Origin: an uncultured delta proteobacterium
GTDB taxonomy: Bacteria > Desulfobacterota > Binatia > UBA9968
Assembly: GCA_963804165.1 (NCBI GenBank)
Contig: CAWDPO010000026.1
Span: forward strand, 1-33,535
DNA: 33,535 nt
Direction: 5' to 3'
Part shown: piece by piece, positions 740-32,160 of the stretch
Layout: each line of letters opens with the position of its first letter
How positions within the stretch are numbered: the first letter of the stretch is position 1
Position numbers and translations under genes: made by a program
The notes under the pieces: model-generated
What the model was told of the DNA's origin: nothing
Databases searched by the model: none
The model's input: only the letters and a program-made list of their open reading frames with translations

Positions 740-2675
740 CTACCTTCGATCGCATCCGCCGAGCTTCAGCGACATCGACGCAATTTCCGGGATAGGGCGG
801 ATAGCCGACAACCGGCTCTCGTTTGACAGCGTTCCTTGACTTTTGGCAATCACAGCGGCCATCTCCGCAACCGTGGGTGAATCCAGCAGGAACTTTATAG
901 GCAGTTCTAGTTTGAACTCCATGACGATTCTCGAGATGACCTGAGTAGCCGCCAGCGAATGGCCGCCGAGGTCGAAAAAAGTGTCGTGGATGCCCACCTG
1001 TTTCAACCCCAACACCTCCGCCCAGATTTTTGCTAGTTTCTCTTCAATGGGATTTCTAGGCGGGACGTACAAGTTATCCAGTGCAGGCCGCGAATCATCC
1101 GGCACCGGAAGCCCGTGGCGATCCAACTTACCGGCAGGCGTCGTCGGCATTGCCGCCAGCATCACAAAGGCCGAAGGAATCATGTATTCGGGCAGCGTTT
1201 TGCGAAGCCATCGGCGCAACTCGCTTACGGTGATCCCGGGCCATTTATGCGGCACGCAATAAGCCACCAGCCGCCTTTCCCCGGCGTGATCCGCTTGACC
1301 GATGACAATGGCTTCCTTGACGCCGTCATGCCGCAGCGAAACCCGCACTATCTCGGCGATCTCAACCTGAACCCCTGATTTTTATTTGCGAATCCTTGCG
1401 CCCCCCGTGGAACAGACACCCATCGTCGGTGAGCCAGCCTAGATCGCCGCTCAAATAGGTTCTTTCATCCCCGCCGTTCGGATCGGACAAGAATCTGATC
1501 GGTCATCACGCGCATGCGCCAGTAGCCCGGTGAAAGAAAGCGGCTTCTGATGGCGATCTCCCCGATCGCGCCTGCTTTGGCTGGTTCTCCGTCATCATCG
1601 AGTATAAGGATTTGCAAATCCTCATGTGCATAACCCACAGGCACATCGTTGTTTTGAATTTCTGTCTCTTGTCGATCATGTAGTGGCTCACCTTCCCCGC
1701 TTCGCCGCAACCCAACCTCCCAACCAATATACACTCGTCGGCGAAATGCTTTTTATAGATTTCCACATCGTTCGCATAAACCGGTTCGCCTCCGATGCAA
1801 AGCAGGCGCAGGTGCGGGAAGCTCTCGCCGGAAAGAGCCCGCGAAGTGCCGGAAAGAGGATGACACGGAATCGAAAACGGTAATCTCTTCATGAATCAAC
1901 CAAGCAGCGAGACGAACGAATCCGTCCTTTGCGACGCTATACGGATAAACAGCGGCGCCGTTGAGCAAGCCGTCAAACAAATCAGCGATGGACCCGGAAG
2001 TGCTCGGTGATCGAAGCAGCGCCATTCGGTCGCGCGGTGAAAAATGAGCCGCAAGGGTATCCCGTAATAGGGTGTGGAGAATATTTCGGTGCGTCTGCAT
2101 GACACCCTTGGGCTGGCCGGTCGAACCGGACGTATAAATCAAAGCGGCAAGACTGTCCGGAGATAAGCATAGATCGAGATTTTCACCGCCGGAACTGCTT
2201 TCAAGTTCATCGATGTTGATGAGGCAAGTCCCCTCTTGAAGATTAGCTTTTGCGAACGGTAGAGTCGCATTGCCGGCGATCAGCCAGCGCGCCTGCGAAT
2301 CAGCCAGCAAGTATTTGATTCTTTCCTTGGGAAAGGACGGTCGATAACAACGAAGATCTTGCCTGCTTTCAGGATGCCGAGCATAGCCGGGATAACCGGC
2401 CCGCCATGCTCCAGGAAGATCGCTACCGGCTCATTTCCCTCGCCTTGTCGATCTATTATTGCCCTAGCCAAACGATTGGCGGTCCGATTGAGTTCGTCAT
2501 AGGTCAGCGCGCAACCGCTCATACTGACCGCTGGCCACTCCGGATACATCCAAACGATCTTTTGAAACCGTTCGGGGATCGACGATTCAACGTCAGCTAC
2601 AGGAAACTCGACGAATATCCCCGACGGGTGAAAGCACTAAGCTCGTATACCCTCTTGTTCCGGCGGTAACTTCAT
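740..2675 (-). pseudogene. Stand-alone NRPS-like adenylation + carrier (A-T) protein, disrupted
   Basis: Starts MKLPPEQEGIRA*CFHPSG (in-frame TAG 2637-2639); fragments in several frames carry TYDELN, LIYTSGSTGQPKG, IGGEP, GEIAIRSRFLSPGYW, PEYMIP/GKLDR and carrier motif FFDLGGHSL; several frameshifts. Confidence 0.88.
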
Positions 2676-14238: not shown

Positions 14239-15354
14239 TTATTCGAGGGCGCCGAGCAATTGGAATTCATAGACGCCAACGGAACTGAAGCCGTGAGAAG
14301 ATATGACCTTAACTTTCAGATACCGTGCTTTCACGGGCGGGAACTTGAACTCCTGATAGGGTTCTTTGAAAAACCGGACGTTCTGCGTCTGAAACTTGCC
14401 GATGGGCTCGAATTTTCCCGTCGCGGAATCATTTCCCGCCAGCAGCTCGAACTCTTTCAAATTCCAGCTCTCCGTGCCAAGAATCAGCACCTTGAATGTA
14501 TCGAAGCTTGCCGGCTTATCATTTTTGAATCCGTAAACTGCCCAACTGCCGACAACTCCGATGTCGATGTACTGCCAATTTTTCTCGTCACCGTCGATGG
14601 CGTAGGGCCACCGATCGTTGGTGGCAACAACAACGTGGCCGCCGTTTTCTGCAGAAAGCACATTCATGCCAGATCGAGCTTGTGTCGAAGGCGCCGGCTT
14701 GGCTGCTGAGGCAGCCTGCTCTTCCGTCCCTCCGGGGCCAGGTTTTGTCGGAGCCGGGGCAATATTCGTCGTCGATGGAGTCGACTGCACCTGGTTTTGC
14801 GATTGAGGATGTGGCTTTTCGAAAAAGCCGGTTTGCTGAAGCACAGCAAGCGAACCAATTACGCCAGCTACGACTCCCGCCAAAACACCCCACATGGCCT
14901 TCGACCAATGCCGCGACCGCACTTCGGTATCGGTTGGGATCTGTCTTGGTTGGACCGGGGCACTGCCATCCATCATGCCGGCGACGGTCCGCACTAATTG
15001 ATCGCACTCACGATGCGAAGAATCACCCTGCCAATCGGAGAGATCTGCTGCTTCGATTCTCTTGAACTCAAGGGGAATTTTGACGTTATCGATCAACGCC
15101 GGCACGAGAATTCCTCGCTCCGCACCCTCGGCTGCTTCCGTTTTCACCCAACGGGAAGACACGGAGGTTTTGGACCAGAGAACAACCACACAGCGGGCCG
15201 AGCTCAACGCATTCTCGATCGTCTCGTCAAACGACTTGCCGGGCGGAATCTCTCGGTCCCACCAAACAGACCAACCCTTCCGCGTAAATGCATTCGCAAG
15301 CAGCTCAGCTTTCTCCTTATCTGCTCTCGCATAGCTGATAAAAATATCACTCAT
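14239..15354 (-). CDS. TIR domain - transmembrane helix - discoidin (F5/8 type C)-like protein, copy 1
   Basis: DIFISYARAD, VWWDREIPPG, VVVLWSKTSVSSRWVKTEA (TIR_2); hydrophobic AMWGVLAGVVAGVIGSLAVL; Pro-rich linker; AIDGD...W, ARYLKVKV, VYEFQLLG. Confidence 0.88.
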   Translation of the reverse strand: MSDIFISYARADKEKAELLANAFTRKGWSVWWDREIPPGKSFDETIENALSSARCVVVLWSKTSVSSRWVKTEAAEGAERGILVPALIDNVKIPLEFKRIEAADLSDWQGDSSHRECDQLVRTVAGMMDGSAPVQPRQIPTDTEVRSRHWSKAMWGVLAGVVAGVIGSLAVLQQTGFFEKPHPQSQNQVQSTPSTTNIAPAPTKPGPGGTEEQAASAAKPAPSTQARSGMNVLSAENGGHVVVATNDRWPYAIDGDEKNWQYIDIGVVGSWAVYGFKNDKPASFDTFKVLILGTESWNLKEFELLAGNDSATGKFEPIGKFQTQNVRFFKEPYQEFKFPPVKARYLKVKVISSHGFSSVGVYEFQLLGALE

Positions 15355-15390
15355 GGGGGTCATGATGATTCCATGCCGAACGGAATGCAA

Positions 15391-15572
15391 TCACTCCTGC
15401 GCGGTGCGCCCAGCGATGAGCTGCACGCTCTCGGCGATAACATTTGGCCTGGTGTCTTTGACCAAGAGGTGGATGTGATTCGCCGTCACGATGTAATCGA
15501 GCACGCAAAGACCGAAACGCTTCTTGGCTTGGAACACCCAGTGCAGATAACGACGACGATCACGGGCAAACG
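15391..15572 (-). pseudogene. Internal fragment of HUH/Y1 REP-associated tyrosine transposase (RAYT-like)
   Basis: FARDRRRYLHWVFQAKKRFGLCVLDYIVTANHIHLLVKDT...GRTAQE*; HUH motif HIH. Confidence 0.85.
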
Positions 15573-15873: not shown

Positions 15874-15898
15874 CGACCCGATCGCGACCCTCGGCGTT

Positions 15899-17737
15899 TC
15901 AATCGAACGGCAGGCGGTCGCCCTTTTCTCTCCCGAGCGCTTGTACCCGCAACGCGAGATCGTAGACCGTTGGCGCTGCGAAAACGCTGCTGATCGGCAA
16001 CGCGATTTTAAAGACGTCTTGAATTCGCGAGATCATCCGCGTGGCCATCAGGGAATCGCCGCCCAACTCAAAGAAGTTGTCGTGAGTGCCGATCTGATCC
16101 AGTGAAAAGATTTCGATCCAGATCTGCGCAAGCCGATGCTCCAGTCCGGTCTTAGGCGGGACGTACGCCGTATCCAACTCGGGGCGATTTTGCGGTGGAT
16201 CCGGAAGCGCGTTCCGATCCAGTTTTCCATTGGCCGATATCGGGAGGCGTTCCAAAAACATGAAGATTGAAGGAATCATGTACGAGGGCAGAGTCAAAGA
16301 GAGCTGTTCGCGGAGATTCTTGATGGAGACTGTGATCGCCGGCTCTTTCTCGATGTAGGCGACGATCCGCGTTGAGTCTTCACTACCCCATGCGACGCTA
16401 GCCGCCGCCCTGACGCCATCTAAAGACCCCAGAGCGTTCTCGATCTCGGTTAGATTGATTCGATATCCCCGGACCTTCACCTGAAAATCTTTTCGGCCGA
16501 GATGAAACAGACAGCCGTCGGCGCCGATCCGGCCGAGATCGCCGGTCCGAAAGACATCGGCCGTGCCGCGGGCCGGACCAGTCAAAAAATGTTTGCGCGT
16601 AAGCGACGGGTCGCGCCAGTACCCCGGCGAAAGATAGTTCGAGCGCACGGCGATTTCCCCGTCTTGCCCTGCAGCGACGACCACGCCATGCTCATCGAGC
16701 AAAAATACCTCCGTGTCGGCGACTGGATAACCCACTGGATACAAAGAAGCCGGCGACTCCGCCGCCGGACTCGATAAATTCACAAGCTGGTGCGTTATGA
16801 TACCCGCTTCCGTCGAGCCGTAGTCGTAGATAACACGGCAGCCATCGGGCAGGACTCGCGCGCAGCGCGCGACGTCCTGCGCGCGCAAAGTTTCACCGCC
16901 GGTGTAAATCAATCGCAGTTCGGGCAACCGAACTCTTTCATCGAACGACTGCGTTACCTGGCGTAAGAGGGAAACAATCAACTGCGCGACCGTGATCTTT
17001 TCTTTGTCCAGCGTCTCGACGAAGGCTGCGACGGAATCCAGCGCGGTGAAAACAAACGCCGCGCCGTTCATCAACGCCGCGAGCAAAGCCCATAGGGTTC
17101 CCGTGTAAGCCGGGGATGTCGGGCTGGTGATGCGATCCGTGGGACCGACGCCGAGATCGCGATGATAGAGCATCGCGACGTGAAGCAGGTTTTGCTGGCG
17201 CTGCATGATTCCCTTTGGACTTCCCGTCGAGCCGGAGGTGTAGAGCACGTAGGCCAGTGAGTCGGGGGAAACAGGCAAGCCCGGGTTTTTTTCCGAAAGG
17301 CCGGATCGCAGATCATCGACGATCACGACGGAGCCGCGCTCATAGCCCAATCCTAGCGCCGATTCTAAGGTCTCGAGCTCGGCCACCACCAGGCGGGCAG
17401 CGGAGTCCGCGGTAATTTGTCGTTGGCGCGCCACCGGAAAAGACACATCGACTGGAACGCAGGCCCTGCCGGTTTTAACAACGCCGAGTTGAGCGACGAC
17501 ATGATGGATCGGATCGCGCAGTAGCAGGAGGATCGTGGCATCCTGGCCGGTGAGTTGCCCGAGGAGCGCATGCGCCAACCGGTTCGATTGCCTATTCAGC
17601 TCGTCGTACATCACGCTGCGAGCACCATGGCGCAGCGCCAGCCGGCCGGGCGCCTCCCGGGCAATTTCCTCGAACCGGGCGGCGAGCGATTGCGCGCAAG
17701 CTTGTCTAGGGAAATCGAAACTATGCGGTTCCGCCAT
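15899..17737 (-). CDS. Stand-alone NRPS-like adenylation-thiolation (A-T) didomain
   Basis: YDELN, LAYVLYTSGSTGSPKG, GGE, YGSTE, FRTGD, GRKDFQVKVRGYRI, LPISANGKLDR, carrier FFELGGDSL; intact 612 aa; no C or TE domain. Confidence 0.93.
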   Translation of the reverse strand: MAEPHSFDFPRQACAQSLAARFEEIAREAPGRLALRHGARSVMYDELNRQSNRLAHALLGQLTGQDATILLLLRDPIHHVVAQLGVVKTGRACVPVDVSFPVARQRQITADSAARLVVAELETLESALGLGYERGSVVIVDDLRSGLSEKNPGLPVSPDSLAYVLYTSGSTGSPKGIMQRQQNLLHVAMLYHRDLGVGPTDRITSPTSPAYTGTLWALLAALMNGAAFVFTALDSVAAFVETLDKEKITVAQLIVSLLRQVTQSFDERVRLPELRLIYTGGETLRAQDVARCARVLPDGCRVIYDYGSTEAGIITHQLVNLSSPAAESPASLYPVGYPVADTEVFLLDEHGVVVAAGQDGEIAVRSNYLSPGYWRDPSLTRKHFLTGPARGTADVFRTGDLGRIGADGCLFHLGRKDFQVKVRGYRINLTEIENALGSLDGVRAAASVAWGSEDSTRIVAYIEKEPAITVSIKNLREQLSLTLPSYMIPSIFMFLERLPISANGKLDRNALPDPPQNRPELDTAYVPPKTGLEHRLAQIWIEIFSLDQIGTHDNFFELGGDSLMATRMISRIQDVFKIALPISSVFAAPTVYDLALRVQALGREKGDRLPFD

Positions 17738-17793
17738 GGTCGCTACTCGTCGCGCTCAGACGCATAAAATTTCGCCGGGCGTTCGGGCCGCCG

Positions 17794-18945
17794 TCACGGC
17801 AGCGGGGCCGATTTGCCGCGCAGCAATCGCTTCGCTTCTTTGCCGAAGACCTCGCTGATGACGCCGAGATTCGGCGCCAGATTGGGGTTGAGGCGATCAT
17901 CCACTGCGGCGACGGCCTGAGCGACCTTGGGGAACAGCCGCGGCAGGTCTATGCCGATAACCCGCGCCGCGCCGAGCGAGTCTCTGATCACTTTTCTGAC
18001 CACGTTGCCGCGCCCCTTCGCGCCGGGCCGTCCGCCATCGGCGATGAGATGCGCGCTCGCCCGCGCATGGTCGACAACGACTCGCAGCGCTTTGCTCTTG
18101 GCTTCGCTGTGCAGGTTGCCGGCGCAAGTCGATCGCACAACATCGGCAATGACTCGAAGCTTCGGCGTATCGTGAACACTCAGTCTTCCCGCTACCACCA
18201 TTTCGAGCCGCTCCATGCCCAGGGCCAACTCTACGAGCGGCTGCGGCAGCGGCGCCAGTCCGTTGTTCGGACCCGAACGGGTGCGATGAGTGATGGTGAC
18301 GATGTTCGACACCTCTATAAATCGGCTTGGCTGAGTGATCGGATTGGCGTCGACGGCGGCCTCGCTGGTGGGCGCGGCGTCGAAAAACAGCTCGCTGTGG
18401 GGCCCGCAGATGCCGCTTCGCTCGGTGCCGGAATTGGCCCCCTCGAACCAAACGTTGGTGGAATGATCGCCCTGCCAAATTTGCCGCGGGTCGATTCCCG
18501 CCGCCAGATAGCCGTCGCGCGCTTCGAAGTCAGGGTGCAGAAATTCGCCGGCGACATTCCCACCGCCGAAATAGGTGACGTGAAGTCGGCCGATCGGCAA
18601 ATCGCAATCCTGCACCAGATATCGGACCAGCGGCGTGATCAAATCCGCCGTGCGCCATCCGCTACAGCGCAGCGCTCCCGCCATCTCGAATAACGAAAGA
18701 TGCGTTTCATCGGAAACCCGATCCATGTCGAAATGCCGAAAACATCGCTGCACCGTTGCGGCGCCGTCCAGGTGAACGGACTTGCCGGCAATCGCATCCA
18801 AAACGTCGACAAAGCCGACACTGAAAAGAAAAGATGTTTTTATGGTCGGTTGCAGCAATGAAAGGGCGGGTGAGCGCTGAAATCCAGCCGCGCCGAACGC
18901 ATCAAGGAATCGCTCTCTGATGTCCCCGTGAACGCCTTGTAACAT
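17794..18945 (-). CDS. Truncated, divergent alanyl-tRNA synthetase-like protein (catalytic + partial helical domain)
   Basis: DIRERFLDAF, QRCFR, HLSLFEMAG, RLHVTY, CGPHSELFFD, FIEVSNIV, LGMERL, LRVVVDHARA..LIADG, RG.V.R; 383 aa, no editing/C-Ala domains. Confidence 0.88.
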   Translation of the reverse strand: MLQGVHGDIRERFLDAFGAAGFQRSPALSLLQPTIKTSFLFSVGFVDVLDAIAGKSVHLDGAATVQRCFRHFDMDRVSDETHLSLFEMAGALRCSGWRTADLITPLVRYLVQDCDLPIGRLHVTYFGGGNVAGEFLHPDFEARDGYLAAGIDPRQIWQGDHSTNVWFEGANSGTERSGICGPHSELFFDAAPTSEAAVDANPITQPSRFIEVSNIVTITHRTRSGPNNGLAPLPQPLVELALGMERLEMVVAGRLSVHDTPKLRVIADVVRSTCAGNLHSEAKSKALRVVVDHARASAHLIADGGRPGAKGRGNVVRKVIRDSLGAARVIGIDLPRLFPKVAQAVAAVDDRLNPNLAPNLGVISEVFGKEAKRLLRGKSAPLP

Positions 18946-19209
18946 AATCCAAAAAGCCGCCGCTGATCAATTGTGGCATTGTGGCATATCAGCCGATTGC
19001 GAACAACGACTGAAATGGCGCTCGCACAGCCGCGTCACAATCGTTTTTTAATCAACGCGGAGCCGCTAGTTCGTTCGGGTTGGCGTCGAACGCCTTTTAC
19101 GAACCGCACAGACCCCACAATCTGCACAATCCGTGTGCGTCTGCTTGACAGCTTTCGCTGTGATCGATTATTCCGAAGCTCAGGAGATTGTACTGGAGGG
19201 AGGGCAGGC

Positions 19210-20262: not shown

Positions 20263-20422
20263 GTAATCGAGCACGCAGAGATCAAAGCGCTTCTTCGCCT
20301 CGAATACCGAATGCCGGTAGCGGCGTCGATGCGGGCAAACTTTAATAAGAATTTCTTTGATGGCAGCGGCGAGTGATGTGCCAAATGCGGCCCGGTAGAA
20401 AGTGGCGGTTTGCGCGCGGCAT
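20263..20422 (-). pseudogene. 5' fragment of RAYT-like HUH transposase (frameshifted)
   Basis: MPRANRHFLPGRIWHITRRCHQR...FEAKKRFDLCVLDY, overlapping in content with the 15391-15572 fragment. Confidence 0.85.
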
Positions 20423-20578: not shown

Positions 20579-21697
20579 CTATTCGAGCGCACCGAGCAAT
20601 TGGAATTCATAGACACCAACAGAACTAAAGCCGTGAGAAGATATGACCTTAACTTTCAGATACCGTGCTTTGACGGGCGGGAACTTGAACTCCTGATAGG
20701 GTTCTTTGAAAAACCGGATGTTCTGCGTCTGAAACTTGCCGATCGACTCGAATTTTCCCGTAGCAGAATCATTTCCCGCCAGCAGCTCGAACTCTTTCAA
20801 ATTCTAGCTCTCCGTACCAAGGATCAGTACCTTGAATGTATCGAAGCTTGCTGGCTTATCATTTTTGAATCCGTAAACGGCCCAACTGCCGACAACACCG
20901 ATGTCGATGTACTGCCAATTTTTCTCATCACCGTCGATGGCGTAAGGCCACCGATCGTTGGTGGCAACAACAACGTGGCCGCCGTTTTCTGCAGAAAGCA
21001 CATTCATGACAGATGATCGAGGTTGTGTCGAAGGCGCCGGCTTGGCTACTGAGGCAGCCTGCTCTTCCGTCCCTCCGGGGCCAGGTTTTGTCGGAGCGGG
21101 GGCAATATTCGTCGTCGATGGAGTCGACTGCACCTGGTTTTGCGATTGAGGATGTTGCTTTTCGAAAAAACCGGTTTGGTGAAGCACAGCAAGCGAACCA
21201 ATTACGCCAGCTACGACTCCCGCCAAAACACCCCACATTGCCTTCGACCAATGCCGCGACCGCACTTCGGTATCGGTTGGGATCTGTCTTGGTTGAACCG
21301 GGGCACTGCCATCCACCATGCCGGCGACGATCCGCATTAATTGATCGAACTCACGATGAGAAGACTCACCCTGCCAATCGGAGAGATCTGCTGCTTCGAT
21401 TCTCTTGAACTCGAGGGGAATTTTGACGTTATCGATCAACGCCGGCACGAGAATTCCTCGCTCCGCACCCTCAGCTGCTTCCGTTTTCACCCAACGGGAC
21501 GACACCGAGGTTTTAGACCAGAGAACAACCACACAGCGGGCCGAGCTCAACGCATTCTCGATCGTCTCGTCAAACGACTTGCCGGGCGGAATCTCTCGGT
21601 CCCACCAAACAGACCAACCCTTCTGCGAAAATGCATTCGCAAGCAGCTCAGCTTTCTCCTTATCTGCTCTCGCATAGCTGATAAAAATATCACTCAT
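20579..21697 (-). pseudogene. TIR-TM-F5/8C protein, copy 2, with premature stop
   Basis: Collinear with 14239-15354; TGG->TAG at 20804-20806; frame continues to LLGALE*. Confidence 0.88.
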
Positions 21698-21733
21698 GGG
21701 GGTCATGATGATTCCATGCCGAACGGAATGCAA

Positions 21734-21886
21734 TCACTCCTGCGCGGTGCGCCCCGCGTTGAGCTGCATGCTCTCGGCGATAACGTTTGGACCTGTGTCT
21801 TTGACCAGTAGGTGAACGTGGTTGGACGTGACCATGTAGTTCAGCACGGAAAGACCGAAGCGCTTCTTCGCCTCAAATACCCAATG
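21734..21886 (-). pseudogene. Internal RAYT-like fragment
   Basis: HWVFEAKKRFGLSVLNYMVTSNHVHLLVKDTGPNVIAESMQLNAGRTAQE*; same 3' junction as 15391. Confidence 0.85.
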
Positions 21887-21929
21887 ATCGCGAATTTTGC
21901 AGCTACAGATTGTCGAGAAATAAAAGTCC
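21885..21929 (+). repeat. 45-bp direct repeat, copy 1
   Basis: TGATCGCGAATTTTGCAGCTACAGATTGTCGAGAAATAAAAGTCC vs 23553-23597. Confidence 0.85.
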
Positions 21930-22039: not shown

Positions 22040-23479
22040 ATGCCTATACGTCGAGGAGAAGAATTTCTCGAAAGCCTCAGGGATGGGCGCCGCGTCTGGC
22101 TACGAGGTGAATTGGTCGAAGATGTCACCGCACATCCCAGTTTGAAAGGCTGCGCCCGAAGCGTTGCCGCGGTTTATGACCTTCAACACGTCCCAGCCCA
22201 TCGGGACCTGCTGACCATGCCTTCCCCGGTTACGGCGCAGCCGGTAAGCCTGGCCTATCTTTTGCCCCATTCGGTCGAAGATCTGACCCGCCAGCGAAAG
22301 ATGTATGAGTTCCTCGTGCGTCGTGCTGGAGGCGTGGCGGCTCGCCTACCCCAGCACCTGGCTACCGTTGTTTTGGGGCTGCACGACGTTCGTGACATCC
22401 TGGGCAAAGAAAATTCGGCCTTCGCGGGGAACGTTACCCGCTACTTCGAGTATTGCCGCGAAAACGATTTGGCCATCGCCACGATTTTCAACGACCCATT
22501 TCATCACCGAAGCCATCCGCAGTCCAAGCAAGAATACTTGAGGGTGGTTGAGAGGCGGGCCGATGGCATTGTGGTGAGAGGTGCCAAAGGAGTGGGAACG
22601 CAGGCACCCTACGCCAATGACATCCTGTGTCTAACCCAACCACGACCTGACCTCCAGCCCGAGGAGGTGTTGTATTTCGCCGTGCCTGTGAACTCTCCAG
22701 GCCTCCAGCTCATCTGCCGGCAGCCCCTGGCGCCACCCAACCCTGAGGATCATCCCTTAAGTCCGCACTGGGACGAGATGGACGCCATGGTGCTGTTCGA
22801 CAACGTGTTCATACCCTGGGATCGAGTATTCTATTTGCGTCAATCCGATCCCGAAGACCCGAGTCTATACGCGCGGCTTTTCCAAGGAGCCATGGGTATT
22901 GGGCCCTGGTATGTTTTAGTGCGGATGGCGGTCAAGGCGGAGGTGTTGCTGGGCATCTGCGCGGCGATGGCCGAATATCTCGGCACCACTAAACAACCTC
23001 ATGTACAGATGGCCCTGGCCGACGCCATAGTCTACCTGGAGACGATGAGGGCCTTCATCCATAGCGCTGAAACGAACCCTGTCCGCTCTCAATCGGGGCT
23101 CACCCTGCCCAACTGGATCCCGGCGCAAGCAGCCCGCATCTTCTCGATAGAGGGCTATCCCCAGATGCTACAGATGATACGCGAACTGTGTGGCTCCGGT
23201 ATCCTGATGTCGCCGAACGAAACTGATATGAATAATTCCGAGGTCGGCCACCAAATCCGGCGCTTTTTTGTGGGGGAGAACGAGCGCACGCAAGAATGCT
23301 TTCGCATGCTGAAGCTGGCGTGGGAATATGCCTGCGACTCTTTCGGCTCCCGCCAACTACTCTTCGAAATGTACAACGTCGCCAGCCTGGCCACCAACAA
23401 ACAGAGGCTCGTGAATAGCTACGATCTGAGCCCCTTCGTCCGCCTGGCTAAAGAATTGGCAGGCATTAACGAACGCTAG
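22040..23479 (+). CDS. 4-hydroxyphenylacetate 3-monooxygenase (HpaB)-family flavin-dependent oxygenase
   Basis: GEEFLESLRDGR.VW..GE.VEDV..HP, LRVVERRADGIVVRGAK, DHPLS..DEMDA...FDNVFIPWDRVF, LKLAW....FGSRQ.LFE; substrate unknown; no reductase gene in window. Confidence 0.92.
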   Translation: MPIRRGEEFLESLRDGRRVWLRGELVEDVTAHPSLKGCARSVAAVYDLQHVPAHRDLLTMPSPVTAQPVSLAYLLPHSVEDLTRQRKMYEFLVRRAGGVAARLPQHLATVVLGLHDVRDILGKENSAFAGNVTRYFEYCRENDLAIATIFNDPFHHRSHPQSKQEYLRVVERRADGIVVRGAKGVGTQAPYANDILCLTQPRPDLQPEEVLYFAVPVNSPGLQLICRQPLAPPNPEDHPLSPHWDEMDAMVLFDNVFIPWDRVFYLRQSDPEDPSLYARLFQGAMGIGPWYVLVRMAVKAEVLLGICAAMAEYLGTTKQPHVQMALADAIVYLETMRAFIHSAETNPVRSQSGLTLPNWIPAQAARIFSIEGYPQMLQMIRELCGSGILMSPNETDMNNSEVGHQIRRFFVGENERTQECFRMLKLAWEYACDSFGSRQLLFEMYNVASLATNKQRLVNSYDLSPFVRLAKELAGINER

Positions 23480-25193: not shown

Positions 25194-25303
25194 TGTTATC
25201 GGACGAAATGTGTTATTGCAAGACCTGATAATCATCTAGCCGGTTTCTCCAGTAGGCCGTAAGTTTGAGCGATCAAACTTTAGTGTCGAAGGAGGAGACG
25301 GAG

Positions 25304-26319
25304 ATGAAGTTGTACGGAGCGATCGATCTGCACTCGAATAACAACGTGACGGTGTTGATCGATGAACAAGATCAGGTTGTGTATCAAAAGCGGCTGCCCA
25401 ACGATCTGCCATTGATCGTCCAGCAGCTCTCAGGCTATCAGGACGCGCTCCAAGGCATTGTCGTGGAGTCGACCTTCAACTGGTACTGGCTGGTCGACGG
25501 CCTGATGGACCACGGACATCGTGTTCATCTGGCCAACACTGCCGCGATCCAACAATACGAGGGACTGAAGTACACCGACGATCATTCCGACGCCCGCTGG
25601 CTCGCCCACATTCTGAGATTGGGAGTATTGCCGCAGGGCTCCATCTATCCGAAAGAAGAGCGAGCGGTACGCGATCTGCTGCGCAAGCGCGGCCAGATGG
25701 TCCATCAAAGAACCACCAACCTGCTAAGCCTACAGAATCTGATCACGCGTAACACTGGGAGTTCGATCCGGTCCAATCGAATCAAGATGCTCGATAGCGA
25801 AACGGTCGACGCTCTTTTGCCCAATCAGGATTTAGCCCTGGCGGTCAAAGCCAACCTAGCCATGATCCAGTGTGCCGATGAACAGATCGATATCTTAGAG
25901 AGGACCGTCACCGAGAGGATAAAACTGAGAGCGGCGTTCAGCTTTCTTAAGACCGTGCCGGGCATCGGGCAGATTCTGGCGCTCACGATCATGCTGGAGA
26001 CCGGAGAGATAAGAGATTTCCCACGGTGGGAGACTTTGCTTCGTACTGCCGCTGTGTCGGGAGCCAGAAGTTAAGCAACGGCAAGAAGAAAGGCAGCGGC
26101 AATACCAAGAACGGCAACAAGTATTTGGCTTGGGCGTTTGTCGAAGCGGCCAACTTTGCCATCCGATACAATGCCAGGATCAAAAGCTTCTATCAGAGAA
26201 AGAAGGCCAAGAGCCATGGGGTGTTGGCAATCAAGGCGGTAGCGCACAAGTTGTGTCGTGCCTGTTACTACATCATGAAAGAACAGGTGGCCTTCGATGT
26301 CGCCAAGGCGTTTGCCTGA
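25304..26319 (+). pseudogene. IS110-family DEDD transposase/recombinase, one frameshift near 26020
   Basis: AAGGAGG RBS; AIDLH, VVES, KYTDDHSDA; L.TVPGIG; second frame FASYC...SNGK...KNGNKYL..AFVEAA, AVAHKL. Confidence 0.92.
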
Positions 26320-28726: not shown

Positions 28727-29731
28727 TTAAAGCGAGAGGATTGCGTTGATGATGTATTTGGCTGCGAAATTCCCTACCAACAGCAACCAGTGCTCCTGCT
28801 GGCGCACCATCCGTCTCCAGAAGAAGGCGAACTCGGGCCGATCGCTGAGATATTTCGAGTACAAGCGCCCGAATCCTCGCATGATCTCCGCCCTTGACGG
28901 CGCTAGAGCGGCGTGGATCTCGATAAGCAGCCTTCCCCGTTCATCGCAGAAAGCGAAACACGGAAGGACCGGGGCTTGCAGAATTTCCAGGATTTGAAAG
29001 GTAGCCGGATCAAGAAAGAATCTTTTGTAGAAGAAGTCGATTTCAAGTTCAGATTTGCCGTTGGGGAAACCCCTAACCAGAAGATGAAGGACCTCATTTC
29101 TCCTTATGACGGAACGCATACGCTGCAGCGCCTGCATGTGTTCCGGTACATCACGTCCCAAAGTGATATAAGATAGGTTTTCAGAAGGCGATCCTTGACC
29201 GACTCTCCTGCTTTGGTCATGTCTACGGAGCCGCACAACCCTGTTGTATTTGTAGCCCTTTTGACTGAGCACCGGCGCAACCATGTCCGTGAATCCGTGC
29301 GCATGACCGGATAACAGGACGGCACCCTTGCCGTCGGACAACGCGCTCGCAAGATGATCTTCGCCTTCTATCTGAACGTATCTTTGGTGGCGTATCTCCC
29401 AATGGGCCCATCCGTGAAACAAAGCGAGCTGCCACTTCCTATTGCGAATATTTCTTTTGATTATGGCTGGAAGCTCGGAGCTTGGAAATTTTGCCTCAAT
29501 GGCTCGTCGCATATATCGCACGCGCCGGCGGTCGGGCGGGTAGACGTAATAGGCTATTCCAGCTACCGCTTGGATCCAGTTGAAGTAGGCTGCCGGGCCG
29601 ATTCGTTCGGCCAGCCAACGCAGTCCCGGCATTCTATGAAGGAGGTACGAGGACCGAATCCAAGAAAGCTTTTCGTTTATTCTCATGCGCTGTTTCGACC
29701 TACTCGCTGCGTCCGGGAGCACGGTGCTCAC
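28727..29731 (-). CDS. Lysophospholipid acyltransferase superfamily protein (LpxL/HtrB-like)
   Basis: VQIEGEDHL..AL..GKGAVLLSGH, V.FF, APVLP.F, Y....P..W pattern; catalytic motif atypical (HAHGFTD). Confidence 0.72.
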   Translation of the reverse strand: MSTVLPDAASRSKQRMRINEKLSWIRSSYLLHRMPGLRWLAERIGPAAYFNWIQAVAGIAYYVYPPDRRRVRYMRRAIEAKFPSSELPAIIKRNIRNRKWQLALFHGWAHWEIRHQRYVQIEGEDHLASALSDGKGAVLLSGHAHGFTDMVAPVLSQKGYKYNRVVRLRRHDQSRRVGQGSPSENLSYITLGRDVPEHMQALQRMRSVIRRNEVLHLLVRGFPNGKSELEIDFFYKRFFLDPATFQILEILQAPVLPCFAFCDERGRLLIEIHAALAPSRAEIMRGFGRLYSKYLSDRPEFAFFWRRMVRQQEHWLLLVGNFAAKYIINAILSL

Positions 29732-30104
29732 TCAGAGACATTTGTAGCTCGTCAGGCAACCCGGATCGTCCTCGCAGTCGGACAAAGAATCAGCATGAGT
29801 CGTCTCAGGCGCTTCCCGGATCAGAACAAGATCACGGGACAAGGATTGTCGAGTCCAGAGCGTCCGGAGTCGTGGATCTGGCCCGTTTGACCGCGGGGTC
29901 TTGACTGATTGGGTTGCAAAGGCACAATTGCTCGCTATAAGGTTTCAGCTCCTGGATGCCTCTCCCTCAGTTCATGAACGATTGGCTCGGGATCGAATTG
30001 GAACACGGCCAGCAAGAGGGTCGGTTGATGTGGTTAAGGCACCGCAAAGTTAGCTCGTAGCCCTGAACATGTTTGTACGTTGATGCAAAGATAGCTTGAA
30101 TTCT

Positions 30105-31628
30105 ATGACTGAAGGTCCATCCGCGCAAACCGTTGCTCAAGCGGATCCGAACCGAGCCGGTTGTGGAACCCTTTTTTCCATTCTTCGAGACGCCGCTGCA
30201 ACTTCGCCTGAGCAAGCGGCGCTGGTTCATGACGGCCAGAGTTTGCGCTACCGAGACCTTTATTCCGCCGCCGAGACGCTCGCATGTGAATTGAAAAAGG
30301 CGGGCGTTAGCGCCGGAGACCTAGTGGGCCTCATCGCTGCGAGCACCGCGGCATACATGACTATGTTCTTCGCCGTCGCGCGCATCGGCGCGATCGCTGT
30401 TCCTATTCCGCGCGGCTCAAAGCCGAGTGAGGTCGCTGATTTGGCGGATCAAATAAACTTAAATGTCTTTTGTTATTCCCGGAAGTTTGCGTCGCTCATT
30501 CCTGATGGCCCTATGGAAGGGGCCGTGGAACTGACGCCGGAATTGGCGGATCGCGAAGCTCTCTCGATAAGGCGACACGGCATCGGAGAAACCCTCGACG
30601 CCAAGCGCGAGATGCTCTTAAAGGCGTCGGTCGGCATGATTCGTTTCAGTTCCGGCACGACAGGCAAGTCCAAAGGGATTATGCTGTCGACACCTGCGAT
30701 CTTGGCGCGCGCGAAAGCGTTTTCTTTTGCCTACAGTCTCACGAAGAGCTCGTGCATGCTTCATCTTCTTTCGGCAGAACTCGCTACTCCCACTTTGTTG
30801 GGTTGTATGTTACAAGCAGCAACCGTTGTCTTAGAAGACATTCACAGGCTGGAGTCGATTGCCCAGTTGATTCGAATGCATGGAGTCACTCACATCCATG
30901 CTTCACCGCTGTTTTACGGAATGATTGTCGGCAGCGGGGCGATTAACGCCGATGATCTTCGCGGCGTGAGATATGTCATCAGCACCGGAGCGCCGCTAGC
31001 TGTCCCGGTCGCAACGGCTTTTAGTGACAAATTTGCTCGTGAAATATTTCAGTATTATGCATTGGCGGAATGTGGCACTGTCTTCGCCAATACTAGCCGA
31101 GACGTGGCCAAGCGAGGGACCTCAGGTGTGCTTGTGCCTGGGTCCGACGTCAAGCTGGTGAATTCGACAGGATCTGGCGTTTATGAATTCGGCGAGCTCC
31201 TGGTTAAGGGTTCGGGGCTTTTCGAAGGTTACTACCGGCCGTGGAGGTTGGGAAACGAAGTTCTGGAGGACGGGTGGTTCAGAACCGGTGATGTCGCTAG
31301 GCGGGACGCGGATGGGTATTACTGGATTGTCGGCCGCACGAAGGATGTGATCAATGTGGGCGCCGTCAAAGTATTCCCGGATGAAATCGAGGAAGTGCTC
31401 CTGAGTCATCCCGCAGTGGGAGAGGCTGTAGTCTTCGGGGCTTCAGATCCCAGGTTTGGAGAGGTCCCCAGGGCAAAAGTAGTTCTGGATCCCGGCTCAA
31501 CCTGCACGGAGAAGGAGTTGATCGACTTCAGCAATCAGAGATTGTCCGTGTTCAAGAGGCTGCGGTCCATTGAGATCGTTCTCGAACTCCCGAAGACGGC
31601 CACGGGGAAATTGAAACGTAGCGTTTGA
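30105..31628 (+). CDS. Class I adenylate-forming enzyme (acyl-CoA/acyl-ACP ligase family)
   Basis: FSSGTTGKSKG, STGAPL, YALAE, GELLVKG, GWFRTGD, GRTKDVI, LPKTATGK. Confidence 0.92.
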   Translation: MTEGPSAQTVAQADPNRAGCGTLFSILRDAAATSPEQAALVHDGQSLRYRDLYSAAETLACELKKAGVSAGDLVGLIAASTAAYMTMFFAVARIGAIAVPIPRGSKPSEVADLADQINLNVFCYSRKFASLIPDGPMEGAVELTPELADREALSIRRHGIGETLDAKREMLLKASVGMIRFSSGTTGKSKGIMLSTPAILARAKAFSFAYSLTKSSCMLHLLSAELATPTLLGCMLQAATVVLEDIHRLESIAQLIRMHGVTHIHASPLFYGMIVGSGAINADDLRGVRYVISTGAPLAVPVATAFSDKFAREIFQYYALAECGTVFANTSRDVAKRGTSGVLVPGSDVKLVNSTGSGVYEFGELLVKGSGLFEGYYRPWRLGNEVLEDGWFRTGDVARRDADGYYWIVGRTKDVINVGAVKVFPDEIEEVLLSHPAVGEAVVFGASDPRFGEVPRAKVVLDPGSTCTEKELIDFSNQRLSVFKRLRSIEIVLELPKTATGKLKRSV

Positions 31629-31647
31629 TCGTTCTAGCAAGGGAGGC

Positions 31648-31881
31648 ATGGACCGACGCATGTCGAGAGAGCGAGTGCTGAGAGTGGTCGAGTCGATTTT
31701 AGGCCCCGACCATAATGGGGATGGAGCGAGCCTCGAACTGGAGTCTATGAAAATGCTCGAGTTGGTCGTGGCAATCGAGCAGGAGTTCGGAATACAGATT
31801 CCTGATGACGCTACAATAGCCGATATCATGTCATCGGTCGACACGATCGTCACATACCTTGATAACAACCGTATCGGATAG
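31648..31881 (+). CDS. Acyl carrier protein
   Basis: GGAGG RBS; LELESMKMLELVVAIEQEFGIQIPDD with Ser at phosphopantetheine position (ES rather than DS). Confidence 0.85.
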   Translation: MDRRMSRERVLRVVESILGPDHNGDGASLELESMKMLELVVAIEQEFGIQIPDDATIADIMSSVDTIVTYLDNNRIG

Positions 31882-31959
31882 CTCTCACCGCCTCTACACG
31901 TGATATGTAGGAGTAGCCACGAAGTAGCCACGAAGGGTCTACCATCGGAATTTAGCAGG

Positions 31960-32160
31960 TAGCAGGATCTAAAAGAATCCTGTAAAGAAATTCTTGACGA
32001 GGGTGTGGCTCTTGGGGTCAGTGGCCTGTTCATTCAGGCTCACCCAGTCTGAAATGCCGCCCTCGTCACCTGCATCATCCGAGGGTCGACCGGGATGGTG
32101 CCATATTCTCTTACCAGAATACGTGGCTCTGTAAGTAGACGAGACCGAAGGATGATGAAA
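31960..32160 (+). ncRNA. Predicted bridge RNA (5' stem-loop, target-binding loop, donor-binding loop)
   Basis: CAGGAT/ATCCTG hairpin; stem 31995-32005/32058-32068; stem 32073-32087/32143-32157; guides CGGGATG-GT and CGTGGCT match the element's own ends. Confidence 0.82.

Follow-up and report, generated by a model that had tools for sequence, protein, structure and literature searches.

Paralogs of aminoacyl-tRNA synthetases (aaRS) that act outside translation are known to have given rise to new chemistry; among them are MshC, PoxA, the cyclodipeptide synthases, the aa:CP (amino acid:carrier protein) ligases and AcmF. The known SerRS-derived aa:CP ligases act together with carrier proteins that stand alone, and PacB is a further example of the aminoacyl-tRNA-dependent type of transferase. 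Excerpts of PMC9437257 describe the aa:CP ligases as zinc-dependent and derived from an atypical SerRS, and MshC, PoxA/EpmA, AsnA and GluQRS as aaRS-derived ligases with non-tRNA acceptors. For the AlaRS fold, our literature search turned up AcmF as the only characterized catalytic-core paralog that does not charge tRNA. In ascamycin biosynthesis, AcmF serves as an AlaRS-like alanyl transferase; according to its description (PMC12945691, in part), it takes Ala-tRNA from a dedicated AlaRS (AcmD), acylates a nucleoside sulfamate, has lost most of the residues for ATP binding and activation, has Gln in place of an Asn, and requires E232, the Glu that replaces Asp. The initial annotation of the DNA studied here had counted this ascamycin enzyme among tRNA-independent ligases, which is contradicted by its description in the same source as aminoacyl-tRNA-dependent.

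The window we analyzed is a stretch of 33,535 nucleotides (contig CAWDPO010000026.1) from an uncultured delta proteobacterium; it encodes an AlaRS-like protein next to an adenylation-thiolation (A-T) protein of the non-ribosomal peptide synthetase (NRPS) type. Like AcmF as published, the AlaRS-like protein comprises an aminoacylation domain and a partial tRNA-recognition domain, carries the Asp to Glu change, lacks the Asn and Asp readers of G3:U70 and appears to belong to secondary metabolism. Unlike AcmF, with which the comparison was by published description only (PMC12945691, in part), it has preserved both the Asn and the residues that bind ATP, lies near no dedicated AlaRS and is linked to an A-T protein of the NRPS type. 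With the aa:CP ligases, as the excerpts of PMC9437257 present them, it has in common a class II aaRS core apparently without tRNA binding, a phosphopantetheinyl carrier and a link between aaRS and NRPS chemistry, whereas its fold is that of AlaRS (its sole Pfam match being PF01411, with no homology to atypical SerRS) and the carrier belongs to the same polypeptide as an A domain. MshC, PoxA/EpmA, AsnA and GluQRS resemble what we propose below in that an aaRS core passes an aminoacyl-adenylate to the amine or hydroxyl of a non-tRNA acceptor, but they involve other aaRS families and acceptors, and those excerpts report an NRPS A-T partner for none of them. Canonical AlaRS (alaS, TIGR00344) shares the fold, the motif 2 and motif 3 arginines, the adenine-stacking Phe and the pocket Trp, Asn and Val; it is, however, ~870 residues long versus 383, and the window protein differs from it in lacking the editing and C-Ala domains, in its Asp to Glu and Gly to Ala changes, in a changed Asn reader, in a 6–7-residue insertion after Trp166 and in the loss of the SFGDYFK-type motif.

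Layout and conservation of the gene pair

The features of the locus are as follows (coordinates in the window; evidence in brackets).

17794..18945, minus strand: AlaRS-like catalytic-core paralog, 383 aa (ORF call, Pfam, NCBIfam, family alignment)
17738..17793, minus strand: spacer of 56 bp between the AlaRS-like and A-T genes
15899..17737, minus strand: stand-alone NRPS-type A-T protein, 612 aa (ORF call, Pfam, NCBIfam)
16616..17674, minus strand: large subdomain of the A domain (AMP-binding, residues 22-374; Pfam)
16223..16447, minus strand: small C-terminal subdomain of the A domain (AMP-binding_C, residues 431-505; Pfam)
15953..16135, minus strand: thiolation domain (PP-binding, residues 535-595; Pfam)
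18946..19108, no strand assigned: upstream non-coding stretch (homology blocks among near-identical contigs)
15881..19108, minus strand: whole conserved unit, ~3.2 kb (homology blocks among near-identical contigs)

The two genes are co-directional with the AlaRS-like gene 5' of the A-T gene, and these coordinates agree with the initial annotation, which had placed a 383-aa AlaRS-like ORF ~56 bp upstream of the A-T ORF. A scan of the spacer found no terminator-like hairpin. The ~3.2-kb unit was common to near-identical metagenome contigs with unlike flanks (L009, L014, L016, L017, L019, L020, and L021), and the homology blocks across near-identical contigs stopped at position 19108 or 19026. 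The stretch 18946..19108, which near-identical strain variants carry along with the cassette, is the presumed promoter region; a promoter scan of it found no sigma-70 consensus.

The initial annotation had also raised the question of adjacency to A-T genes among homologs. We counted this over the loci in which the AlaRS-like gene is uninterrupted and is followed by downstream DNA (n=20), and an A-T gene was directly downstream in every one. These loci represent six lineages that are 49–66% identical and whose metagenome sources include Verrucomicrobia and Bryobacterales; comparison of the divergent loci found no further ORF in common besides the pair. In two relatives (L024 and L028) the AlaRS-like and A-T ORFs overlap by 4 nt, and a natural fusion, P0201 (1022 aa; one protein on one contig), has domains that run PF01411, AMP-binding, AMP-binding_C, PP-binding, so the paralog occupies the place that the condensation (C) domain has in a C-A-T module. 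The hosts of the cassette are rare soil bacteria. The AlaRS-like and A-T genes may together be a two-enzyme module that is self-contained and moves horizontally, a view we hold tentatively and at less than even odds.

The AlaRS-like protein and its family

The AlaRS-like protein consists of the aminoacylation domain and the initial helical portion of the domain for tRNA recognition, and PF01411 (tRNA-synt_2c) matched it with E 4e-38 over positions 1-358 of the model's 552; the editing domain (tRNA_SAD) and the C-terminal C-Ala domain are absent. Its motifs and key residues (R70, F86, W166, E211, N214, V216, L233, E239, A241, R246, and A309) were compared by alignment to solved AlaRS structures, including the 435-aa AlaRS fragment 9jc7, with residue roles taken from PMC12143591 (in part). 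R70, F86, and R246 aligned to R68, F89, and R232 of 9jc7; by these roles R70 is at the position of the alpha-phosphate Arg, F86 and R246 are at those of the adenine-stacking pair, and V216 is at the position contacting the Ala methyl. All four, together with N214, were invariant in the family alignment. The ATP site of class II synthetases, with its motif 2 and motif 3 arginines and its adenine-stacking Phe, is present, as the initial annotation had read from the sequence. When we compared 78 Asp-type AlaRS matches with 32 family members, 37 of the 57 conserved AlaRS columns (at least 90% in the Asp-type set) had an unchanged consensus in the family, among them Q66, R70, D73, H82, F86, M88, N164, W166, E185, E211, N214, V216, G243, E245, and R246.

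The motif changes previously noted by eye (FTNAGM to LFSVGF, EIWN to EVSN, DTGMGLER to ELALGMER, and PSN.GRGY to PGAKGRGN) were all found in the alignment to solved AlaRS. In the third of these, Glu239 is at the position of the amine-binding Asp (Asp235 of E. coli AlaRS) and Ala241 is at the Gly position of the DTG motif; Glu was at the amine-binding position in 32/32 family members. The claim of an altered amino-acid pocket is accordingly right as to this Asp to Glu239 change but needs tempering, as the Asp is conservatively replaced and not lost, and Asn214, Val216, and Trp166 are kept. We infer that this paralog, with its class II adenylate-forming site preserved, would be capable of adenylation.

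Judged from its sequence, the protein appears to have lost the parts required to recognize and charge tRNA-Ala. The G3:U70 readers are N303 and D400 in E. coli AlaRS numbering. The column of the Asn reader, 91% Asn in Asp-type AlaRS, is variable in the family (consensus Pro) and Ala309 in the window protein, which stops near residue 356 of the 435-aa 9jc7, before the segment with the second reader and before the editing domain; the readers and the editing domain had been called replaced or missing at the outset, and the alignment bears this out. The protein was below the alaS cut-off of TIGR00344 (135.9 bits vs 457.05) and that of NF002436 (107.1 vs 529). The helical tRNA-recognition subdomain (residues ~250-383) is kept and is very basic in the window copy (pI 11.1), a charge that is not conserved in the family (median +3.5, range -4 to +11). 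The search for alaS elsewhere in the genome that the initial annotation had suggested found a separate canonical locus with an editing-domain motif on contig C13; PF07973 matches in the genome were on C13 and C20, with none in the AlaRS-like gene. Canonical alaS was also found in 2/3 other host genomes.

In our tree the family of ~380-aa proteins was a distinct clade (32/32 members together, support 0.954) separate from the Asp-type AlaRS sequences and nested in a larger uncharacterized group of truncated Asp to Glu AlaRS-like proteins; having its own clade, it is an old, separate lineage and no recent truncation of a host alaS. A search of 400 other sampled genomes of the same phylum did not find the protein. 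Distant Glu-type relatives (P0032, P0033, P0068, and P0071) have tandem domains and fusions to GAF and histidine-kinase ATPase domains; the fused relatives, each of whose domains scores ~230-270 bits with the family profile, fall outside the family clade and hint at a possible sensor use of the AlaRS-like fold.

The A-T protein

The A-T protein matched AMP-binding, AMP-binding_C, and PP-binding with the A-domain core motifs intact, in keeping with its first description as an intact adenylation-carrier protein, and was just under the TIGR01733 cut-off (306.9 vs 317.4). In the ortholog alignment (n=20), T167-G176, E310, D400, K505, and S562 were invariant, Lys505 being the A10 position of the A domain and Ser562, within LGGDSL, the phosphopantetheine (Ppant) attachment serine. 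The residue of A domains that binds the substrate alpha-amino group is Asp235 in GrsA numbering. At this position the alignment set Thr212 against the Asp of the FD motif in each of the two LgrA modules, and Thr was found in 20/20 orthologs, so the absence of the FD-motif Asp noticed in the initial annotation is a feature of the whole set; the A-domain pocket positions are conserved across phyla. The domain search of the A-T protein found no C, TE, or R domain, and PF00668 (condensation domain) had no match in the AlaRS-like protein, the A-T protein, or the fusion P0201. A transferase of the Sfp/AcpS type (PF01648) was not found in the window genome, which is 81% complete.

A proposed ligase, its alternatives and its meaning

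Functional coupling of the AlaRS-like gene to the A-T gene is strongly supported by the 20/20 adjacency with no other common neighbor, the one natural fusion, the separate alaS, and a catalytic site that is kept while the tRNA readers are missing. The reading that we prefer, to which we give a probability of roughly 0.35, is that the paralog is a ligase, dependent on ATP but not on tRNA, which joins a small amino acid to a carrier-tethered acyl group and so stands in for a condensation domain. The A domain would activate a carboxylic acid without an alpha-amino group and load it as a thioester onto its own T domain; the AlaRS-derived protein, taking the condensation-domain place of a C-A-T module, would make a small aminoacyl-adenylate (of alanine, or of a close analogue, e.g., glycine or serine) and transfer the aminoacyl group to a nucleophile of the T-tethered acyl group. 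As the A-domain substrate would have no alpha-amine, this nucleophile, a hydroxyl or distal amine, is hypothetical. Starter condensation (C-A-T) modules are alike in that the fused form is X-A-T and in the proposed joining of a second acyl unit to a T-tethered substrate; X is here a class II aaRS core, proposed to be ATP-dependent, whereas a C domain is CoA- or carrier-dependent, and the likeness is one of function and not of family membership. It is possible, if doubtful, that the AlaRS core is the bond-forming catalyst of a minimal assembly line free of C domains, esterifying or amidating the T-held substrate, with a product that may release itself by cyclization; esterification would resemble the core's former esterification of the tRNA 3'-OH.

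Other roles for the paralog have to be weighed against this ligase. That it is a split half of, or an otherwise functional, alanyl-tRNA synthetase is very improbable: although it is clearly homologous to the aminoacylation domain of AlaRS, it scores 135.9 against a TIGR00344 cut-off of 457, its Asn reader is changed, it stops short of both the editing domain and the second reader, no gene for the missing half adjoins it in any locus examined, the genome has its separate alaS, the family clade is apart from Asp-type AlaRS, and the protein was not found in the 400 other sampled genomes of the phylum. The paralog might instead make Ala-AMP and put alanine on the T-domain Ppant thiol, as the SerRS-derived aa:CP ligases do, after which the A domain would activate a non-amino acid and N-acylate the alanine held there, or loading would alternate between the two enzymes. 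We consider this unlikely, as the T domain invariably comes joined to an A domain whose core motifs are intact, and since an A domain normally loads its own T thiol the two enzymes would compete, while the known aa:CP ligases use free-standing carrier proteins. To our knowledge there is also no precedent for an A domain N-acylating a tethered aminoacyl group, which counts further against it. In its favor, the paralog retains its site for ATP and amino acid but not the tRNA readers, the T domain is the only carrier of the unit and has an invariant serine, and class II aaRS homologues without tRNA binding that charge carrier Ppant are described in the excerpts of PMC9437257.

An aminoacyl-tRNA-dependent transferase like AcmF, which would bind Ala-tRNA made by the housekeeping AlaRS and hand its alanyl group on to the thiol or to T-tethered cargo with no ATP use of its own, also seems rather improbable. 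AcmF is truncated, readerless, and Asp to Glu and yet uses Ala-tRNA (PMC12945691, in part); the window protein likewise is truncated with its readers missing and the same Asp to Glu change, and keeps a helical subdomain that is basic in the window copy. AcmF, however, is described there as being without most ATP-binding residues, whereas R70, F86, R246, and N214 are invariant in the family, Gln is at the N214 position in 0/170 aligned domains, and the Asn/Gln-to-Glu spacing is 13 in AcmF (by published numbers) versus 25 in the window protein, which probably makes AcmF a different lineage; a complete adenylation site under purifying selection would be unexpected for a non-adenylating enzyme. 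We regard as a long shot that the AlaRS-like fold is a non-catalytic partner that binds alanine, ATP, or the adenylate and regulates or stabilizes the A-T protein as a sensor or chaperone-like subunit. The tandem Glu-type domains and their GAF and histidine-kinase ATPase fusions are an architecture typical of sensor modules, but they are a different subgroup outside the family clade, the full catalytic set including both arginines is invariant across 49–66% identical orthologs, and P0201 puts the paralog at a catalytic-domain position. Counting against the ligase reading itself are the Asp to Glu change in common with AcmF, which uses Ala-tRNA and not ATP (PMC12945691, in part), the retained helical subdomain, which in its basic window form would suit RNA binding, the cassette's lack of a release domain, the PF01648 transferase not found in the 81% complete genome, the sensor use hinted at by the kinase-fused relatives, and the single protein and contig behind the fusion. 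With AcmF, the sole characterized truncated Asp to Glu AlaRS-like enzyme, using Ala-tRNA, the tRNA-dependent route remains a candidate.

Our literature search, with subscription-journal papers and supplements outside it, found no account of such an AlaRS-like/A-T cassette. Here an AlaRS-core family is obligately paired with NRPS A-T proteins across phyla, and fused once, and the pairing suggests a new two-enzyme way to join two building blocks. This compact two-protein system makes directly testable whether an aaRS core can replace a condensation domain, and bears on the role of the universal Asp to Glu change in truncated AlaRS-like proteins. Should the ligase mechanism hold, it would provide a small ATP-driven coupling part for engineering and would flag a class of biosynthetic loci without C domains. 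If true, our proposal would represent a new logic for non-ribosomal chain extension and the first function for the large uncharacterized group of Asp to Glu AlaRS-like proteins.

The gene pair and the active site of the AlaRS-like protein

As the initial annotation had claimed, an alanyl-tRNA synthetase (AlaRS)-like gene and an adenylation-thiolation (A-T) gene lie co-directionally in the window, and the ORF coordinates place 56 bp between them:

17794..18945, minus strand: AlaRS-like paralog, 383 aa (ORF call, PF01411)
15899..17737, minus strand: A-T protein, 612 aa (ORF call; AMP-binding, AMP-binding_C and PP-binding)

No terminator-like hairpin was found in the 56-bp spacer, and the cassette formed by the two genes contains no C, TE or R domain. 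PF01411 (class II AlaRS) was the only Pfam match of the paralog (profile positions 1-358 of 552, E-value 4e-38), and because its score of 135.9 bits against the NCBIfam alaS equivalog is far under the cut-off of 457, we regard it as a relative of AlaRS and not as an alaS. A full-length alaS had been expected elsewhere in the host genome (G000; 81% complete, 5% contamination); a separate locus with the editing-domain tRNA_SAD motif is indeed present on contig C13, but several frameshifts break it in the assembly. This canonical alaS (G000:C13:105942-108029) runs over at least three reading frames with internal stops, which are probably indel errors of the metagenome-assembled genome (MAG), and the same errors may account for other split genes in the window. 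A canonical alaS co-occurs with the paralog in two of three other host genomes. NRPS genes are abundant elsewhere in G000 (18 condensation-domain and 40 PP-binding matches), and the assembly gave no match to PPTase (PF01648), which at 81% completeness does not argue that the enzyme is absent.

The closest solved structure to the paralog was 9jc7, an AlaRS fragment of 435 aa, whose numbering (R68, F89, V204, L219, D225, R232) agrees with that of Methylomonas AlaRS429 in PMC12143591. There, Phe89 and Arg232 are described as sandwiching the adenine, Arg68 as gripping the alpha-phosphate, Val204 as contacting the alanine methyl and Asp225 (E. coli Asp235) as binding the alpha-amino group. F89, R232, R68, V204 and D225 of 9jc7 align to F86, R246, R70, V216 and E239 of the paralog, Leu219 aligns to L233, and the Gly of the DTG motif to A241; the pocket residues Trp166, Asn214 and Val216 are retained. 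Every motif change reported from the sequence alone was found again in this alignment, but the amine-binding Asp, which had been thought lost, is conservatively exchanged for Glu239. We expect the Glu239/Ala241 pair to make the amino-acid pocket tighter or to shift it, and our guess is that alanine or glycine is the likeliest substrate. The residues that read G3:U70 of tRNA-Ala (N303 and D400 in E. coli numbering) are replaced or absent as proposed: Ala309 stands in the Asn column of PSN.GRGY, and the C-terminus, at about residue 356 of 9jc7, precedes the segment that holds the second reader. An alignment of 17 family sequences had a mean column identity of 62% and 66 invariant columns, including R70, F86, M88, W166, E185, E211, N214, V216, L233, E239, G243, E245 and R246. 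Taken together, the alignments establish a predicted class II adenylate site that is complete and under purifying selection, in a protein from which the elements predicted to confer tRNA-Ala specificity are gone.

A truncated family with Glu in the amino-acid pocket

A word-indexed search with the paralog returned 31 proteins, 29 of them close relatives (38-99% identity), of which 26 were 362-402 aa long and three were shorter fragments of 230-352 aa; one, from an Acidobacteriota MAG, was annotated as "alanine--tRNA ligase-related protein". When 1.84 billion representatives were searched with a profile, 8791 matches had E-values of 1e-3 or less. We aligned 170 sequences, comprising the window paralog and 169 domain hits that spanned at least 300 profile positions, with the shorter ones of 183 left out. 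These were divided into family A (32 sequences of at least 330 bits, the window paralog included), an Asp-type group (78 sequences with Asp in the E239 column, mainly full-length AlaRS) and a Glu-type group (the 59 remaining sequences with Glu there), so that the result for the E239 column itself is circular. Among 57 columns at least 90% conserved in the Asp-type, family A had the same consensus in 37, whereas the 20 changed columns fell in five clusters: the motif 1 region; the SFGDYFK-like motif downstream of motif 2; the surroundings of a conserved 6-7-residue insertion after Trp166 (NSGTERSG); the change of DTG to ELA; and the Asn and Tyr of PSN.GRGY. In a midpoint-rooted FastTree phylogeny family A was monophyletic (32/32 members, support 0.954), as were the Asp-type sequences (78/78, support 0.721), and the sister of family A was a set of eight Glu-type proteins of 331-379 aa (support 0.911), including P0038, P0048 and P0066. 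All Glu-type proteins were either truncated, with a median length of 403.5 aa, or joined to further domains.

Two features were discarded as clues. The lack of AGGK in the motif-2 loop (QRCFR-HFD) could not be read as a family-specific loss of contact with the tRNA 3' end, since many full-length Asp-type AlaRS (of the QKCFRT-TDI type) also lack it, and the charge of the C-terminal helical domain (+12 in the paralog; family median +3.5; canonical AlaRS 0) was set aside as an indication of a partner since it varies within the family (-4 to +11). Likewise, proteins P0032-P0034 appeared to be the closest relatives by score (491-497 bits), but each carries a pair of AlaRS-like domains that score about 230-270 bits apiece, and these proteins are members of a different subgroup rather than family A fusions. 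This separate Glu-type subgroup, at about 230-270 bits for each domain, has AlaRS-like domains in tandem, and fused to GAF repeats and a histidine-kinase ATPase domain (P0032, P0033, P0034, P0068, P0071). In P0032 and P0033 the tandem domains precede GAF and histidine-kinase ATPase domains, and in P0068 and P0071 a single AlaRS-like domain stands ahead of GAF repeats, with or without a kinase domain. These architectures suggest an uncharacterised signalling class with an aaRS-derived input module.

The paralog had no match at E-values of 1e-60 or less in 400 further genomes sampled from the phylum of the window (339 of them at least 90% complete), and sister-clade protein P0038 had none at 1e-45 or less in 400 other genomes from the phylum of genome G402.

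Linkage to the A-T gene and genomic setting

Pattern scans with the family alignment found three loci in species-representative genomes (Verrucomicrobia, Bryobacterales and Acidobacteriota MAGs), these three being the ones among 17 matched stretches of genome contigs that code for relatives, and 26 loci in metagenomes. When both window proteins were searched by tblastn against the 29 loci, the predicted adjacency to A-T genes proved conserved: a homologue lay directly downstream, on the same strand, in 20 of the 20 loci having DNA past an uninterrupted AlaRS-like gene. In eight others the contig stops within the AlaRS-like gene, and in one (L032) this gene is disrupted beyond about residue 164. 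In that locus (L032:1-6020) the near-identical gene loses its match at window position 18455 and is followed by about 5.4 kb of unrelated DNA, and the region upstream of the cassette recurs at the far end of the contig, suggesting either an insertion or a rearranged or circularly permuted contig. Fifteen of the 20 paired loci are at least 90% identical to the window and count as a single lineage. Six lineages are independent (the window type, L006, L007, L024, L027 and L028), between which the paralog is 49-66% and the A-T protein 42-59% identical. An overlap of 4 nt joins the paralog and A-T ORFs of L024 and of L028.

All-against-all ORF comparison and Pfam searches of the neighbours identified no third gene conserved across the divergent loci, the neighbours being TRAP transporter and sulfatase genes in L006, glycosyltransferase and adenylate cyclase in L027, phosphotransacetylase, methyltransferase and type VI secretion genes in L007, and NMT1-type binding protein and TIR-domain genes in the window. 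In L008 a C-A-T-C NRPS gene lies upstream of the cassette in divergent orientation. One protein from a single contig (P0201, 1022 aa), retrieved with the A-T protein as query, is a fusion with PF01411 (37-354), AMP-binding (423-780), AMP-binding_C and PP-binding, nearly free of linker and carrying the family A motifs; a search for longer paralog matches revealed no second such fusion (two proteins returned, the other with PF01411 only). Three more pairs of hits with the same source and equal-sized contigs (P0004/P0184, P0014/P0189, P0016/P0191) suggest further co-located genes. These comparisons establish that the paralog gene is inseparable from an A-T gene predicted to be active, and once fused ahead of it.

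As had been noted, the A domain lacks the Asp of the FD motif: in the alignment to both LgrA modules, the Phe-Asp of the A4 motif is matched by Tyr211-Thr212. The 20 cassette-type orthologs share Thr212 and Trp216 without exception, and Gly213 is at least 90% conserved among them; the T167-G176 loop, E310, D400, K505 and the carrier serine S562 are also invariant. The other pocket positions, assigned by eye from an alignment and the homologue listing against the GrsA motif positions, are Gln252, Ile/Val277, Thr279, Asp/Asn/Ser305, Ile313 and Ile/Met/Val314. Since pocket positions are conserved across lineages, the pattern argues for one common predicted substrate without an alpha-amino group; Gly213 and Trp216 resemble residues of A domains that activate keto acids, a likeness from which we predict no particular substrate. 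About 27 of the 120 homologues listed have this signature, and the remainder are a large, diverse set of stand-alone A-T proteins of 620-700 aa, likewise without Asp at the Asp235 position, whose sources (P0202-P0297) include Binatia, Tectomicrobia, Poribacteria, Chloroflexi and Methylomirabilis MAGs. The window has another stand-alone A-T gene (740-2609, minus strand), 31-46% identical to the cassette protein by tblastn; in this assembly it is split over several frames (AMP-binding at 1753-2310; AMP-binding_C and PP-binding at 740-1348), and it adjoins no AlaRS-like gene.

The window cassette is bracketed by two copies of a TIR-domain gene (94-97% identical), and fragments of an IS200/RAYT-like gene are also present. 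The surrounding features are:

14239-15390 and 20804-21733, minus strand: TIR-domain gene copies (repeats 14240-14971 / 20580-21314)
15493-15560, 20263-20330 and 21836-21903: 68-nt repeat, three copies, 62-78% alike
25265-26074 and 32186-33469, plus strand: IS110-family transposase genes, one partial
28727-29731, minus strand: lipid A-type acyltransferase gene
30096-31628: acyl-AMP ligase gene
31672-31857: small carrier protein

The TIR copies are 6.34 kb apart and enclose the cassette and an NMT1-type binding-protein gene; the protein has a transmembrane-like middle and a beta-rich C-terminal domain, and the second ORF is shorter (309 vs 383 aa) although the DNA similarity runs on. Translated by eye on the minus strand, the 68-nt repeats look like part of a tyrosine transposase of the IS200/RAYT type and may be mobile-element relics flanking the cassette. 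Near-identical metagenome contigs match only window 15881-19108 (or to 19026), with unlike flanks, and in L016 the DNA after the cassette matches window 31935-32127, immediately upstream of the second IS110 transposase. An HpaB-type 4-hydroxyphenylacetate 3-hydroxylase gene (22040-23479, plus strand) lies just past the second TIR copy, an adjacency not conserved in other loci, and the genes at 28727-31857 may form an acyl-lipid locus of their own.

Sixteen studies contained the stretch at least in part. Half or more of its sampled words occurred in 14 DNA runs, mostly soil metagenomes, and 15-25% in six RNA-library runs. Contigs from four of four RNA-library runs touched both genes (18, 11, 21 and 21 of 30 bins), with DNA carry-over possible, and a depth spike at 17223-17257 corresponds to the conserved A3 core motif from other organisms. 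No record in the four libraries had at least 31 letters in both genes; given this and the possible carry-over, the coverage does not establish transcription or co-transcription.

A possible role in carrier-protein chemistry

Because the adenylate site appears complete, the tRNA-Ala elements are gone and the A-T gene is inseparable or fused, we infer that the paralog is a tRNA-independent ligase. It would make a small aminoacyl-adenylate without tRNA and pass the aminoacyl group to an acceptor on the T domain. That acceptor may be a hydroxyl or distal amine of T-tethered cargo, a tentative reading to which we give a probability of roughly one in three; two features favour it, namely the presence of an A domain that can load the T domain and a fusion order that mimics C-A-T. 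That A domain also makes it doubtful that the paralog loads the T-domain thiol directly, as SerRS-derived amino acid:carrier protein ligases do, and we rate this below acylation of the cargo.

The main rival, itself unlikely, is that the paralog uses Ala-tRNA in the manner of AcmF, the AlaRS-like alanyl transferase of ascamycin biosynthesis. By its published description (PMC12945691), AcmF is truncated, lacks the readers and has an Asp-to-Glu change, as does the paralog, but it has reportedly lost ATP-binding residues and carries an Asn-to-Gln change, whereas family A keeps the residues at both places. A purely ligand-binding role is improbable: the GAF and kinase fusions would fit it, but they are its sole hint and come from a different subgroup. 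It is very unlikely that the paralog works as an AlaRS or as half of a split one, in view of its predicted loss of the tRNA-Ala elements.

In its Table 1 and section 12, a 2022 review (PMC9437257) has no functionally characterised paralog of AlaRS fold, and its "AlaRS" entry refers to SerRS-derived amino acid:carrier protein ligases that use alanine; AcmF was added by a 2026 review (PMC12945691). Full-text searches covering the main text of mostly open-access papers found no published description of an AlaRS-like/A-T cassette. The cassette would be an aaRS core recruited to carrier-protein chemistry, a known theme in a new form.
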